A stretch of DNA of 9,315 bases from Octopus sinensis (GCF_006345805.1 NW_021827947.1:1-9315), one strand, 5' to 3'. Counted from the stretch's first letter, positions 257 to 8,915 are shown. Notes: generated from the sequence alone by a model not told the origin. Numbers and translations: made by a program.

Positions 257-886
257 TCTTCCTCTTGCCTCTCCTCCCCCATTCCCGTCATCATCTGCGA
301 CGATACTTCCGTCGTAACTGCTATCCTGTCCTTTCTCGCCCCCTTGCAAGGCTTCTGGTTGACAAAATTTCCCTCTCTGTCTTCCACGATAATCCAGCGT
401 TTACAATACTTTTTTCGTCTGGCGTTAACAGCCCTTCTTATCTTGTTCTCCTTGTCTTGTCTCTCACTGTTATATATTTATTTTTCCACTGTTTATATAT
501 ATATTTTTACTGTTTATATGTTTGTACTGTCGTTACTGTCTTGCTTTTTTTACCCCTCTGCGAAAAGATCTCAGAATTTTAATTGATTTGCTTTTCGCGG
601 GAAGAATTTTTCTTCGAAGTATACGTCTCGCTTTTATCTTCGAAACGTTTAGTAGATGAAATCTTAGCGACTGAAGAAGGGGATTTTTCGTTGTGCTTAT
701 CGTCCTGTATCTCTCCCTTTTTTTTGCTTGTCTTGTTCCTTGGTTTGTGTCTATGTGTTTCGTCTCTCTATGTGTTCGACGTCTTTTTGGTGTCCTGTAC
801 ACATATATGCGTGTATATGTACATGTAGAGGTAGGTACGTACATATATGTTTATATATATGCATATATTCTATTTTATTACATATT
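257..886 (+). repeat. Copy 1 of a direct duplication (partner 1110-1743), possibly a PLE pseudo-LTR-like unit
   Basis: Colinear near-identity with 1110-1743 from tcttcctcttgc to gcatatattctattt; offset ~853 bp; contains hammerhead-like modules at 601-684. Confidence 0.92.
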
Positions 887-1743
887 ATACGATTAAACGC
901 ACGCACCCTACTAAGTAGATGTTCTGTTTATCAAGTTAGCCTTGCTATTAACTCTCACGCGAACTCTGCATCTTTCTTTCTTCCTCTTCCCATTTTTTTC
1001 GTCTTTTTTCCCTCACTTAACTTGTCTCTTCCTCTCTCTCTCATTCTTCTTCTCTCTCTCCCTTTCACCATTCTTCATGGTCTCCTCGCACCATTCCCTT
1101 CTTCTTCTCTCTTCCTCTTGCTCCTCCTCCCCCATTCCGTCATCCATCTGCGACGATACTTCCGTCGTAACTGCTATCCTGTCCTTTCTCGCCCGCCTTG
1201 CAAGGCTTCTGGTTGACAAAATTTCCCTCTGTCTTCCACGATAATCCAGCGGTTACAATACTTTTTTCGTCTGCGTTAACAGCCCTTCTTATCTTGTTCT
1301 CCTTGTCTTGTCTCTCACTGTTATATATTTATTTTTCCACTGTTTATATATATATATTTTAATGTTTATATGTTTGTACTGTCGTTACTGTCTGCTTTTT
1401 TTACCCCTCTGCAAAAGATCTCAGAATTTTAATTGATTTGCTTTTCGATGGTTCTTCTTCGCAGGTTTGTCTTCGAAGTAGTCTCGCTTTATCCTTCGAA
1501 ACGTTAGTAGATGAAATCTTAGCGACTGAAGAAGGGGATTTTTCGTTGTGCTATCGTCATGTATCTCTCCCTTTTTTTTGCTTGTCTTGTTCTTGGTTTG
1601 TGTCTATGTGTTTCGTCTCTCTATGTGTTCGACGTCTTTTTGTTGTGTGTCCTGTAACACATATATGCGTGTATATGTACATGTAGAGGTAGTACGTACA
1701 TATATGTTATATATATGCATATATTCTATTTATTAACATATAT
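887..1743 (+). repeat. Longer unit of the partial tandem: unique 887-1109 segment plus copy 2 (1110-1743)
   Basis: 1110-1743 matches 257-886, differing mostly by 1-bp indels. Including 887-1109 in the unit is an inference. Confidence 0.8.
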
Positions 1744-1920
1744 ATATATACTAATCATATAGATATACATACTATATATACAATATATTATACATATATA
1801 TGTATATATATATATATATATATATAATATATATATATATATATATTATATATATATATATATATATATATATATATATTATATATATATATATATATAT
1901 AATATAATATAATATAATAT
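1737..1920. repeat. (TA)n microsatellite grading into (TAATA)n
   Basis: Directly visible. Confidence 0.95.
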
Positions 1921-2237
1921 AATTCGAGACAAAACCACTACTTTGCAAACAACAAGGAAAGACTTAATCAATACATAAAAATTTTTAATATAAAGAAATA
2001 AACCGCCACTACAATCTTTTCATGTCTTCAAAGACATTCGTCCGGTGGATGGATTTCGATCTCCTAATCTGTTTTAATTTATTCTTTATATTAAAAATTT
2101 TTATGTATTGATTAAGTCTTTCCTTGTTTGTTTTGCAAGTAGTGGTTTGTCTCGAATTATATTATATATATTTTACTATAAAATTGGATTAATCCTAAAT
2201 CTGATTTTTCCCTGTAAATTTGGATTTATTCCCTAAT
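1912..2237. mobile_element. Fold-back non-coding element: inverted arms 1912-2002 / 2078-2167, right arm extending to ...GGATTTATTCCCTAAT (2237), hammerhead-like motif in the loop
   Basis: aattcgagacaaaaccactac...gacttaatcaatacataaaaatttttaatataaag is the reverse complement of ctttatattaaaaatttttatgtattgattaagtc...gtagtggtttgtctcgaatt. Flanked by (TA)n on both sides; a related arm occurs at 7052-7230. Confidence 0.85.
2006..2048 (-). ncRNA. Minimal type I hammerhead ribozyme, degenerate (U4>G; position 15.2 is A instead of C)
   Basis: Minus strand reads CCAC-CGGACGA-AUGUCU(UUGA)AGACAU-GAAA-AGAUUG-UA-GUGG: 4-bp stem I, perfect 6-bp stem II, GAAA and a GUA triplet in canonical order. Confidence 0.7.
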
Positions 2238-2239
2238 AT

Positions 2240-2294
2240 TTATTATATATATATATATATATATATATATATATATATATATTATATATATATA
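2240..2294. repeat. (TA)n microsatellite
   Basis: Directly visible. Confidence 0.95.
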
Positions 2295-2628
2295 ACGGAA
2301 TAGTTTTGGGTGAAGTATTGTGTGGTATAACTTTAAGAGATTTCTTGTATAAGGCCGTAATAATCCGAAAAGGTACAAAGCAAACTACAAAAGGAAAACA
2401 AAACAAAGTTGCAAAACAAAGCGAAGGAATGGAAAAGCCTTTGCTCATCTGAGCAACGACTTTTCATCCAACACTTTCGCCAAATGTCCTGAAGAAGGGG
2501 TTATAACCCCAAGATATAGAAATAAAAGGTAAAACTGCGACTTTGTATTCTTTACTCTCCCTTTTCCTTTTGTAGTTTGCTTTGTACCTTCTCGCATTGT
2601 TCCGACTTTACTCAACAAACTTCTTTAA
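2295..2628. mobile_element. Second inverted-repeat element with a decayed hammerhead-like motif in its loop
   Basis: Perfect 29-bp inverted repeat 2370-2398 / 2562-2590 (aaggtacaaagcaaactacaaaaggaaaa), with weaker extension outward and inward (2401-2413 / 2536-2548). Lies between TA-rich microsatellites; outer boundaries are approximate. Confidence 0.65.
2484..2523 (+). ncRNA. Decayed minimal hammerhead-like motif
   Basis: AUGUC-CUGAAGA-A-GGGGUUAUAACCCC-AAGA-UAUA-GAAAU: intact CUGANGA and palindromic stem II. The GAAA position reads AAGA and the stem I partner (expected GACAU) has one mismatch. Confidence 0.45.
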
Positions 2629-2780
2629 TATATATGTGTGTGTATATACACGCGTACGTGTCTGTCTGTCTCTATGCATACATGTATGGATCTATGCATA
2701 CATCTATTGATGTATGCATGTGTGTGCCTGTATCTATATGTGTGTATGTGTGTGTGTGTTTGTGTGTGTGTGTGCATATA
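2629..2780. repeat. Degenerate (TG)n/(TATG)n microsatellite
   Basis: Directly visible. Confidence 0.9.
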
Positions 2781-7645: not shown

Positions 7646-7670
7646 TATATATGTATATAAAGTTGAATTT

Positions 7671-7844
7671 TATATATATATATATATATATATATAGAGA
7701 GAGAGGAGAGAGAGAGGATGAGAGAGAGAGAGAGAGAGAGAGAGATAGATAGATAGATAGATAGATAGATAGATAGATAGATAGATAGATAGATAGATAG
7801 ATAGATAGATAGATAGATAGATAGATAGATAGATAGATAGATAG
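7671..7844. repeat. Compound microsatellite (TA)n-(GA)n-(GATA)~25
   Basis: Directly visible; GATA run 7744-7843. Confidence 0.97.
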
Positions 7845-8126
7845 TTGGGAGTTAAGTCTAGGTAGATAAAAAGGAAGTCTCAGAAGAGGACCGAAGAACA
7901 TATAGTATTTTGTCTTAATACATGATGTAAATAGGTCCAGAGAATATAAAGCAAAGTTAACAATGGAAAATTGGTATATCAATTATTTATCTATTTATTT
8001 TTATATCTCTAAAATCCATAAAATATAGACATTAATAAATAGATAAAATAATTAGACACATATTCTTTTTGGGGTTTGGTTTGCAAGATTCTTTATATGA
8101 GTTCGTGTGTTGAAGCATATTCTGTT

Positions 8127-8523
8127 ACTCTTTTACTCTTTTACTTGTTTCAGTCATTTGACTGCGGCCATGCTGGAGCACCGCCTTTAATCGAGCAACT
8201 CGACCCCGGGACTTATTCTTTTGTAAGCCCAGTACTTATTCTATCGGTCTCTTTTGCCGAACCGCTAAGTAAAGGGAAGGAACATAAACACACCAGCCAT
8301 CGGTTGTCAAGCAATGCGAGGGGGACAAACAACAGACACACAAACACACACATGCATAGATATATACATTACATATATACGACGCGGCTTCTTTTCAGTT
8401 TCCGTCTACCAAATCCACACAAGGCTTTGGTCGGCCCGAGGCTATAGTAGAAGACACTTACCCAAGGTGCCAGCAGTGGGACTGAACCTGGAACCATGTG
8501 GTTCGTAAGCAAGCTACTTACCA
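8127..8523 (-). mobile_element. tRNA-derived CORE-type SINE lacking the first ~18 nt, flanked by CTGTT direct repeats
   Basis: Colinear with 3281-3685; tail (ACTCTTTT)n from 8127; CTGTT at 8122-8126 and 8528-8532. Confidence 0.92.
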
Positions 8524-8527
8524 GTAG

Positions 8528-8804
8528 CTGTTGTGTCTGGGGAGAGTCATTTTCTTTTTGTGCCTTATTATGTAACACACTCGCCGGTAAAATTTCCACT
8601 TTTTTCTTATTTTTATTGCCTTAAAATTTTCGTGGCATCTTGCAACCTTTTCAATAGTTTTAACTCTCAAAAACTATTGAAAAGTTTGCAAAACGCAACG
8701 AAAATTTTAGGACAATAAAAATAAGAAAAAGGTGGAAATTTTACCGGTGTGTGTGTTACATAATAAGGCACAAAAAGAAAATGACTCTACCCAGATACAA
8801 TCAG
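8528..8804. repeat. Long fold-back: ~134-bp imperfect inverted arms (8528-8661 / 8670-8804) with an 8-nt spacer
   Basis: agagtcattttctttttgtgccttattatgtaacacac is the exact reverse complement of gtgtgttacataataaggcacaaaaagaaaatgactct; pairing continues with scattered mismatches to ttttcaatagtttt / aaaactattgaaaa. Confidence 0.95.
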
Positions 8805-8915
8805 ACGCATGTTTCAGCTGATTTATCAAGAGCATATCCATTTATAATTATATAATTATATAATTAAATAATTAATCAATACAATCTATTTAGTAAAACA
8901 GCTTCATCAGAGAAT
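8799..8915 (-). ncRNA. Type I hammerhead ribozyme with complete catalytic core, minimal stem III and long loop II (PLE-type)
   Basis: Minus strand: AUUCU-CUGAUGA(8910-8904)-AGCUGUUUUA...UAAAUCAGCU-GAAA(8815-8812)-C-AUGC-GUC(8806-8804)-UGAUU. Stem II pairs 9/10; stem III is A-U, C-G with a tetraloop; stem I only 3/5. Confidence 0.78.

Follow-up and report, generated by a model that had tools for sequence, protein, structure and literature searches.

Dead copies of unrelated retroelements, some with minimal hammerhead motifs, beside TA-rich microsatellites in a contig of Octopus sinensis

Contig NW_021827947.1 of Octopus sinensis (GCF_006345805.1), whose whole length of 9315 bases is the window analyzed here, consists almost wholly of repeats and microsatellites. 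We consider it highly probable that this window holds dead copies of unrelated retroelements lying by TA-rich microsatellites, the Penelope-type ones among them having likely been pasted there by the reverse transcriptase (RT) and GIY-YIG endonuclease from Penelope-like elements (PLEs). A sequence-only reading of the window had proposed that four mutually dissimilar non-coding elements, here named A, B, C and H4, carry hammerhead ribozyme motifs and that their self-cleaved, rod-like RNAs are mobilized in trans beside a decayed PLE. Tracing copies through the genome (2.72 Gb, 13,516 contigs), we found three of these motifs at family level, and the elements likely lie together through a common preference for (TA)n targets; they do not make up a cooperating or functional system.

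The hammerheads were searched for with a descriptor of our own for the minimal type-I motif, made up of CUGANGA, helix II, GAAA, a helix III of 1-2 bp closed by a palindromic loop, then UH and helix I. In the window this descriptor returned no complete hammerhead. CUGANGA occurs there seven times over both strands, which is near chance (671, 1526, 2489 and 5267 on the plus strand; 8910, 6746 and 6370 on the minus strand), and only at 8910->8815 (minus) is it joined in type-I order with a helix II, of 5 bp, and GAAA. The window taken alone would suggest chance motifs. A chance origin of the hammerhead motifs within AT-rich repeats would further agree with Rfam, whose covariance models (cmscan, E ≤ 1) gave 34 matches in the window and no hammerhead among them, all 34 being microRNA-like scores on hairpins and TA/TG repeats under the gathering cut-offs, and with the boxes of element A, which are within chance reach (24 of 2000 shuffles). 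This explanation is nevertheless scarcely credible, since the whole architecture is present at family level in three unrelated families, with intact cores in 15 of 16 copies of B, 10 of 20 copies of C and 3 of 10 copies of H4. The motif-model scan proposed in the sequence-only reading likewise came out in favor of real hammerheads, with 28 distinct matches in 365,753 bases of loci fetched from the genome versus 0.45 per block-shuffle, and the palindromic helix III and bulged helix II are those of the published PLE type (PMC4209133). None of the matches lay within units of A or in the loci of D, a hairpin repeat described below. Compensatory changes in helix I were not seen within families; the support comes only from unrelated families that keep the pairing with different sequences.

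Thus three of the four proposed hammerheads, those of B, C and H4, stand at family level through intact copies elsewhere, whereas the one in A does not and the window copies are broken. The positions of the three relics had been given accurately (2006-2048, minus; 2483-2523, plus; 8804-8917, minus), and the families bearing them are indeed mutually unrelated and non-coding, with a motif of the PLE minimal type. As a separate observation, additional minimal hammerheads unrelated to these families were present in the flanks of fetched loci (L106:210-242, L064:843-915, L007:1178-1218, L014:1106-1132, and on the minus strand in L015 and L084), about one per 30 kb, and this type of motif is very common in the genome.

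Element B is a fold-back of 315 bp (1921-2235, plus), delimited by the alignment of 16 copies with their flanks. A minus-sense copy from 1921 to about 2075, which has the hammerhead and no extension, stands head-to-head with a plus-sense arm at about 2076-2160, and only the plus-sense copy continues into a 3' extension or tail of 75 nt (2161-2235); (TA)n borders the element at each outer end. The genome holds at least 1574 candidate copies, 72-94% identical. In the alignment of copies, the minimal type-I relic of the window (2006-2048, minus) is mutated in the core (U4->G) and in helix III (C15.2->A) and is the sole non-intact core of the 16. An intact copy, for example L050, reads CCAC CUGACGA AUGUC AUUGAA GACAU GAAAC GAUU GUA / GUGG, with a 4-bp helix I (CCAC/GUGG, seen in 14 matches of the descriptor), a helix II of 5 bp, a helix III of 2 bp with a 4-nt loop (AC-GAUU-GU, then A at H17) and GUA as cleavage triplet. 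Its helix III string ACGAUUGU is self-complementary when G-U pairs are counted, and the sub-family copy L063 has the perfect palindrome ACAAUUGU; in this copy and in L062 the changes affect N7 and the loops 2 and 3, with the core and helices I and III kept.

The inner junction between the arms of B took at least 8 forms among the 16 copies. Given this variation between copies, the mirror half of B was most likely made at integration, and the PLE enzyme has been reported to cut and extend both DNA strands in vitro (PMC11167929), which agrees with such an origin. B is a short unit of about 240 nt with clustered 5' ends and no coding part, features that point to a likely non-autonomous PLE derivative. 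A tandem pair of B, of 374 bp, was seen once elsewhere (C1:208934470 and 208934844).

Element C is also a fold-back (2326-2634, plus), with an inverted arm at 2326-2398 and a main copy at about 2446-2634 that ends at a TA/TG microsatellite. When the interval 2296-2640 was traced in the genome, at least 456 candidates of 67-83% identity were obtained. The majority of the 20 aligned copies reads AAAUGUC CUGAAGA A GGGG UUAUAA CCCC GAAA UA UA / GAAAU, that is, an A bulged out behind CUGAAGA, a helix II of 4 bp, and an AUAU palindrome after GAAA (helix III reads A-UA-U, then A at H17); for both the additional A and the palindrome there are counterparts among published PLE variants (PMC4209133). In the window relic (2483-2523, plus), identified from the same alignment, G12->A and A14->G are found. 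The commonest core defects of C, CCCCA.. and CCCUG.. (CG->CA or CG->TG at C11.1-G12), are present in 9 of the 20 copies including that of the window, and such CpG-type changes would fit the methylation-driven decay of dead copies of an intact ancestor.

Other copies of C reach up to about 300 nt further upstream, to different lengths, and these stretches look coding: that of L078 ends in ...RIMEALLIEKLRPAKNN.. followed by a stop, L083 has YIGSTSRNLRIRIKEH, and one locus runs upstream into a fragment with the pattern YIG...R...H. This upstream fragment matched Pfam GIY-YIG at E 0.0029, below the cut-off, and by BLASTP the endonuclease core of L119, an autonomous PLE locus of this genome, at E 0.002; the C-terminal ORF (open reading frame) of L078 had no BLASTP similarity to L119. 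The copies of C may therefore be 5'-truncated ends of a coding PLE, which is what they weakly look like, and not a separate non-autonomous family. The earlier view of the elements as non-autonomous PLE derivatives stays likely for B and H4, with their short units and clustered 5' ends.

Element H4 lies on the minus strand in two parts, a 5' half with the hammerhead (8804-8920; hammerhead 8917->8804) and a 3' half (7845-8054) that ends at an (AGAT)n microsatellite (7723-7844). The genome search gave 29 candidates, 79-92% identical. In their majority sequence, AAAUUCC CUGAUGA AGCUG is separated from CAGCU GAAAC AUAU GUC / GGAUAUUU by a loop of about 75 nt. This AU-rich loop is closed by a helix II of 5 bp; ACAUAUGU, the string of helix III, forms a perfect palindrome (AC-AUAU-GU, then C at H17), and helix I, read by eye from the alignment, consists of 3 bp, a bulge and 4 bp. 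The core of the window copy is intact, one of the 3 in 10, with helix I parted from it by a nested insertion. The H4 unit measures about 410 nt, and in L104 it forms an inverted dimer. In 5 of 8 loci the 5' end of the unit is found some 45 nt upstream of the hammerhead. Of 6 other copies, 5 end at TA-rich microsatellites; that of the window ends at (AGAT)n. Like B, H4 is likely a non-autonomous PLE derivative.

The insertion within H4 (8062-8803, minus) consists of the repeat D and a short interspersed element (SINE), and is bounded by a target duplication of 7 bp with 1 mismatch (8055-8061 and 8804-8810), after which H4 resumes at 8054->7845. D is a near-perfect palindrome of 278 bp (8528-8805; hairpin arms of 131 nt at 8531-8800) with at least 3119 candidates in the genome, and is joined here to a whole minus-oriented SINE (8117-8523), the SINE 3' region extending to about 8062. 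Sequence of the SINE 3' region was present on exactly one side of D in 15 of 15 other copies; the orientation of D relative to the tail-oriented copies, 7 versus 8, is uninformative. Since D and the SINE make up a single insertion within the target duplication, their contact with the H4 hammerhead is coincidental, and the junction of H4 and the hairpin at the predicted cleavage site was ruled out as a recorded RNA end by the nested insertion, the duplication and the resumption of H4 at 8054. Accordingly, of the three motifs said to be tied to long inverted repeats, those of B and C are, through intrinsic arms, and that of H4 is not, the 8531-8800 hairpin belonging to the unrelated insertion. 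Two further observations on D may be recorded. Its layout of arms and a one-sided extension resembles that of B, which raises the question of PLE-type versus LINE-type (long interspersed element) copying of the SINE and hairpin. Rfam matches to plant microRNA precursors on D (8538-8793) reach E values of 5e-15 with scores far below the gathering scores, an annotation trap.

The 85-nt inverted arms of B with their TA-rich flanks, and the palindrome of D, could also be taken for those of miniature inverted-repeat transposable elements (MITEs), that is, DNA transposons with terminal inverted repeats and TA duplications in which the hammerhead strings would be incidental. We regard this as very improbable, since the inverted repeat of B is not terminal, the 75-nt extension reaching beyond it on a single side, the inner ends of the B arms vary, and a complete hammerhead core is kept in 15 of 16 copies. 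The one-sided SINE sequence of D, and the duplication that D shares with a whole SINE in the window, are likewise those of a retroposed unit.

The decayed PLE ORF of the window was located on the minus strand (4387->2889) by tblastn with a PLE ORF of the same genome, and comprises an RT part (4387->3873, with YLDD) and a GIY-YIG part (3133->2889). The PLE ORFs of the genome matched the RT at 4381->3973 (E 2e-11) and the GIY-YIG region at 3133->2889 (E 1e-7), and in the query ORF, L119, Pfam recognized RVT_1 (E 3.5e-7) followed by GIY-YIG (E 5.9e-7). Numerous stops and frameshifts mark the window ORF, a SINE interrupts it at about 3275-3705, and its family is old, with 65-73% DNA identity to other copies. 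Pfam had no match to the ORF pieces of the window of at least 50 aa. The tblastn matches of PLE ORFs from GIY-YIG loci overturned an assignment of the coding remnants to LINEs only, and the decayed RT/endonuclease ORF noticed in the sequence-only reading is real.

Domain PF01541 yielded at least 5029 candidates in the genome and 147 matches, with open frames of up to 883 aa. At least six TA repeats lay downstream in 27 of 30 PLE loci. Copies of the commonest family have their end immediately at (TA)n, with a further piece of about 40 nt following the usual end in some of them. The placement in (TA)n noticed in the sequence-only reading is supported, and is likewise seen at the 3' ends of autonomous PLEs of this genome; among the window elements, the (TA)n context applies to A and B and partly to C and H4. 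A minimal hammerhead of the U3-A8 variant was found in PLE sense in 11 of the 30 loci versus 0.66 matches per shuffle of all 30. It reads UUGAUAA GGUUC...GAACC GAAAC AUGU A and lies about 75 nt from the PLE 3' end (e.g., L120:2362-2398, L129:2365-2401, L133 and L135); the same variant has been described for Cercyon PLEs (PMC4209133).

These findings lead us to propose the following course of events. The PLE enzyme would cut both strands of an AT-rich target and on each of them reverse-transcribe a 3' portion of the RNA of the element. Such cutting and copying on both strands would leave a fold-back with a one-sided tail, so that the hairpins would be scars of integration and not the RNA that transposes. 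B and H4 would be short non-coding units resembling PLE pseudo-long terminal repeats (pLTRs) and borrowing the enzyme, while C would likely be the 3' untranslated region of a coding PLE, and the hammerheads would cleave only as dimers. The insertion footprint of PLEs is seen in the inverted pair and one-sided extension of B, in the inverted pair and variable 5' extents of C, and in the partial tandem of A with its variable 5' start and fixed 3' end, so the PLE-style partial-tandem and inverted structures had been rightly recognized.

The sequence-only reading went further and took the fold-backs for non-autonomous elements with self-cleaved, rod-like RNAs as intermediates, forming a functional system with the neighboring PLE. 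The clustered 5' ends and missing coding part of B and H4, the single tandem pair of B, and the relation of published animal retrozymes to PLEs (bioRxiv 10.64898/2026.07.22.740005) are consistent with such a system. We consider it unlikely, because the inner junction of B varies and its tail is one-sided, which does not fit rod-like RNAs copied as such; the neighboring PLE is old, decayed and of a different family, with its 3' end facing the 3' end of C; all three window hammerheads are broken; and (TA)n targeting alone accounts for the co-location.

Element A (257-1742, plus) was recognized from direct repeats as 1.73 head-to-tail units of an 853-bp non-coding repeat, so the partial tandem reported before is real. 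Its first unit occupies 257-1109 and its second, partial unit 1110-1742, with (TA)n on both sides (80-256 and about 1700-1921). There are at least 2324 candidates in the genome, and the 40 scored are 97-98% identical. Arrays of A start at different 5' positions, contain up to more than 2.7 units and end at unit position 633-634 in 19 of 19 loci, with a TA-rich microsatellite at the 3' end in 17 of 17 listed loci and TA-type 5' flanks in 14 of 17. Neither an ORF nor, by the descriptor, a hammerhead was found in A, and its interpretation as a tRNA-bearing unit was dropped, as ARAGORN finds no tRNA in the window.

A hammerhead had been proposed in both units of A (601-684 and 1481-1540). The boxes in question belong to a conserved block that is not a hammerhead (638-682, plus, with a second copy at about 1493-1537), where GAAAC (642) precedes CUGAAGA (671). 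With this order, and with no GAAA downstream of CUGAAGA, only a type-II permutation is possible. In that reading, the family majority has a helix II of 4 bp, two of which are G-U, and helix I has pairs at 5 of its 8 positions; a helix II of 6 bp is seen only in the first window copy, owing to a private 1-nt deletion. The diverged relatives L134 (85%) and L143 (about 70%) have A or G at position 17 and no longer form the 1.1-2.1 pair, and RNAalifold gave no hammerhead for A. The type-II hammerhead was therefore rejected on account of its weak helices, its loss in diverged relatives and an arrangement of boxes at least as good in the 24 of 2000 window shuffles mentioned above. Two observations concern the block itself. 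The string CCUUCGAAACGU..AGUAGAUGAAA..ACUGAAGAAGGGG is the best-conserved part of A in these relatives, which are 70-85% identical overall, and a hairpin repeat of about 95 nt just upstream of the decayed PLE (4587-4680), 76-94% identical to many genomic copies, has GAAACGUUU, a palindrome common to the A block.

A probably moves as a non-autonomous passenger, carried by a retroelement enzyme that targets (TA)n, with a PLE as the favored candidate. An enzyme of another kind, from a microsatellite-targeting LINE (candidates being of the Dong/R4 type), is a possible but less probable mover, in which case the tandems would come from template jumping or multimeric transcripts. A fixed 3' end with variable 5' truncation is the pattern of LINEs and SINEs too, A has no hammerhead and no inverted partner, and it has no sequence in common with the PLE 3' ends examined. 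Dong LINEs target TAA-type repeats. In Octopus vulgaris, 1129 recent Dong-R4 insertions are listed (PMC13282606, Table 1). On the other side, arrays of several head-to-tail units that begin with a truncated one have been described as a PLE signature (PMC8557442), the PLEs of this genome end at (TA)n, and separately inserted copies of A are present within 3.3 kb of 4 of the 30 PLE loci, consistent with a common target. A LINE with the A 3' end did not turn up, no search having been aimed at one. A diverged A-like copy beside a PLE (L116) was considered as a link to a parent and rejected, being a separate insertion in opposite orientation with an unrelated LINE in the 7 kb upstream.

With a PLE as the favored enzyme, we tentatively raise a more specific possibility, namely that A is a recently exploded "retrozyme without a ribozyme", an 853-nt RNA copied round and round or from multimers, from a fixed internal start, into TA microsatellites by a borrowed Penelope-type enzyme. 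If this were true, the hammerhead would be dispensable for such spread, and the 45-nt block would be a recognition or start signal for the enzyme.

Several points weigh against the interpretation of the window as a collection of PLE-pasted elements. For B, H4 and A, no autonomous parent came to light: when 30 GIY-YIG loci, a sample of the at least 5029 candidates, were compared with the window by BLAST together with about 1.5 kb on each side, separate insertions were all that resulted, so the anticipated sharing of A, B or H4 termini with autonomous PLE ends was not seen in this sample. A coding parent for C was likewise missing upstream, where tblastn with PLE ORFs gave nothing at E ≤ 1e-3 and Pfam recognized no RVT_1 or GIY-YIG in 75 of the 100 ORF pieces listed, from 10 related loci. 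The motif of C is atypical, with an extra A after A9 and a helix I that pairs at 4 of 5 positions. The tail of B measures 75 nt versus 30-40 bp as published, and A lacks an inverted partner in 19 of 19 loci, which leaves its PLE footprint incomplete. The copy counts are lower bounds based on the best 40 scored candidates, and the hammerhead calls rest on our own descriptor together with our reading of the alignments. Finally, Rfam at E ≤ 10 gave no hammerhead family among the matches listed (150 of 164) for 7 loci of B, so that a covariance-model scan, which the sequence-only reading had suggested, did not detect the motif in these loci or in the window. However, the descriptor found a complete motif in 6 of these 7 loci. 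As loci with a complete motif were passed over equally, the silence of Rfam is uninformative for the minimal type and was rejected as proof of absence; its models appear insensitive to minimal hammerheads.

The kind of element found here is already known (PMC4209133, PMC7229834, bioRxiv 10.64898/2026.07.22.740005). Minimal hammerheads in the terminal repeats of PLEs have a helix III of 1-2 bp with a palindromic loop, act as dimers, and may have a bulged base at helix II or the U3-A8 variant, and truncated PLEs leave single and opposite-strand motifs (Cervera and de la Pena 2014; PMC4209133). The octopus motifs share the type-I order, the helix III strings already given for B and H4 and the AUAU after GAAA in C, the bulged base that starts helix II in C, and the U3-A8 core in the commonest autonomous PLE, and they occur mostly as single motifs or as opposite-strand pairs from truncated copies. 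They differ in belonging to new sequence families of this genome, and in the AU-rich loop of about 75 nt closed by helix II of H4.

PLE insertions have been described with 5' truncation, partial tandems, an adjacent inverted copy, a tail of 30-40 bp and (TA)n targets (Craig et al. 2021; PMC8557442), and in vitro the PLE enzyme prefers AT-rich DNA, with an RT start site on either side of the tail (Frangieh et al. 2024; PMC11167929). The head-to-head 5'-shortened pairs of B and C, the one-sided 3' extension of B and the partial tandem of A with its truncated first unit agree with this architecture, as does the abutment of A, B and the PLEs of this genome on (TA)n. The length of the B tail, and the lack of an inverted partner and a hammerhead in A, do not. 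The published (TA)n preference (PMC8557442) is that of Naiads, whereas the PLE ORFs found here have a C-terminal endonuclease.

Animal non-LTR retrozymes resemble B (about 240 nt) and H4 (about 410 nt) as a class of short, AT-rich, non-coding units of 170-400 nt that bear a type-I hammerhead and for which an origin from PLEs has been proposed (Cervera and de la Pena 2020, PMC7229834; Li, Clavereau and Pollet 2026, bioRxiv 10.64898/2026.07.22.740005). Retrozymes are defined by tandem units in which two ribozymes release a monomer that is then circularized, whereas B, C and H4 of the window are single or inverted, with broken ribozymes; A, which is tandem, has no hammerhead, and the tandem pair of B lies elsewhere. 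Non-autonomous PLE derivatives that form pLTRs and head-to-tail multicopy insertions are also known, for example MRC1 of Chlamydomonas (PMC8557442). A is like them in being non-coding and head-to-tail, with a fixed 3' end, no canonical hammerhead and insertion at microsatellites; MRC1-type derivatives share their 3' ends with autonomous families, but no such partner was found for A. Among the papers listed by our literature search there was none on cephalopod hammerheads, and in the available text of the Octopus vulgaris repeat paper, which lists PLE families, the term "hammerhead ribozyme" occurs zero times (PMC13282606).

What the present window adds are families of short PLE-type retroelements with minimal hammerheads from a large, repeat-rich animal genome, one of them with a very long insertion in helix II. 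B provides a clean natural record of a PLE insertion footprint, with two arms, a one-sided tail and variable inner junctions, in agreement with cutting and extension of both strands in vitro. Rfam models appear to miss the minimal type. For annotation, the hairpins should be masked as PLE-type repeats, not as microRNA-like hairpins or MITEs. Some wider interest attaches only to A, as a very young hammerhead-less tandem retroposon whose target is the same and whose footprint is similar.

A 5'-truncated LINE 3' end, which lies outside the PLE story, occupies 5023-5675 (minus), and its longer copy L033 has RVT_1 and zf-RVT. The adjoining stretch 5676-6530 had no other genomic copy in one search, whose matches stayed within 5023-5683, and its ORFs had no Pfam match. 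A second LINE fragment, also 5'-truncated, runs off the contig at 8921-9315 (plus), abutting H4 and removing its 5' end; a long copy, L048, has Exo_endo_phos and RVT_1. The SINE copies of the window presumably resemble octopus SINEs. One of them (6829-7627) contains at 7040-7400 (minus) a diverged B-like copy without a hammerhead core, detected through the inverted repeat of 2163-2240 with 7049-7126. This copy sits in the internal (TA)n of the SINE, an arrangement that points to SINE-borne microsatellites as landing sites.

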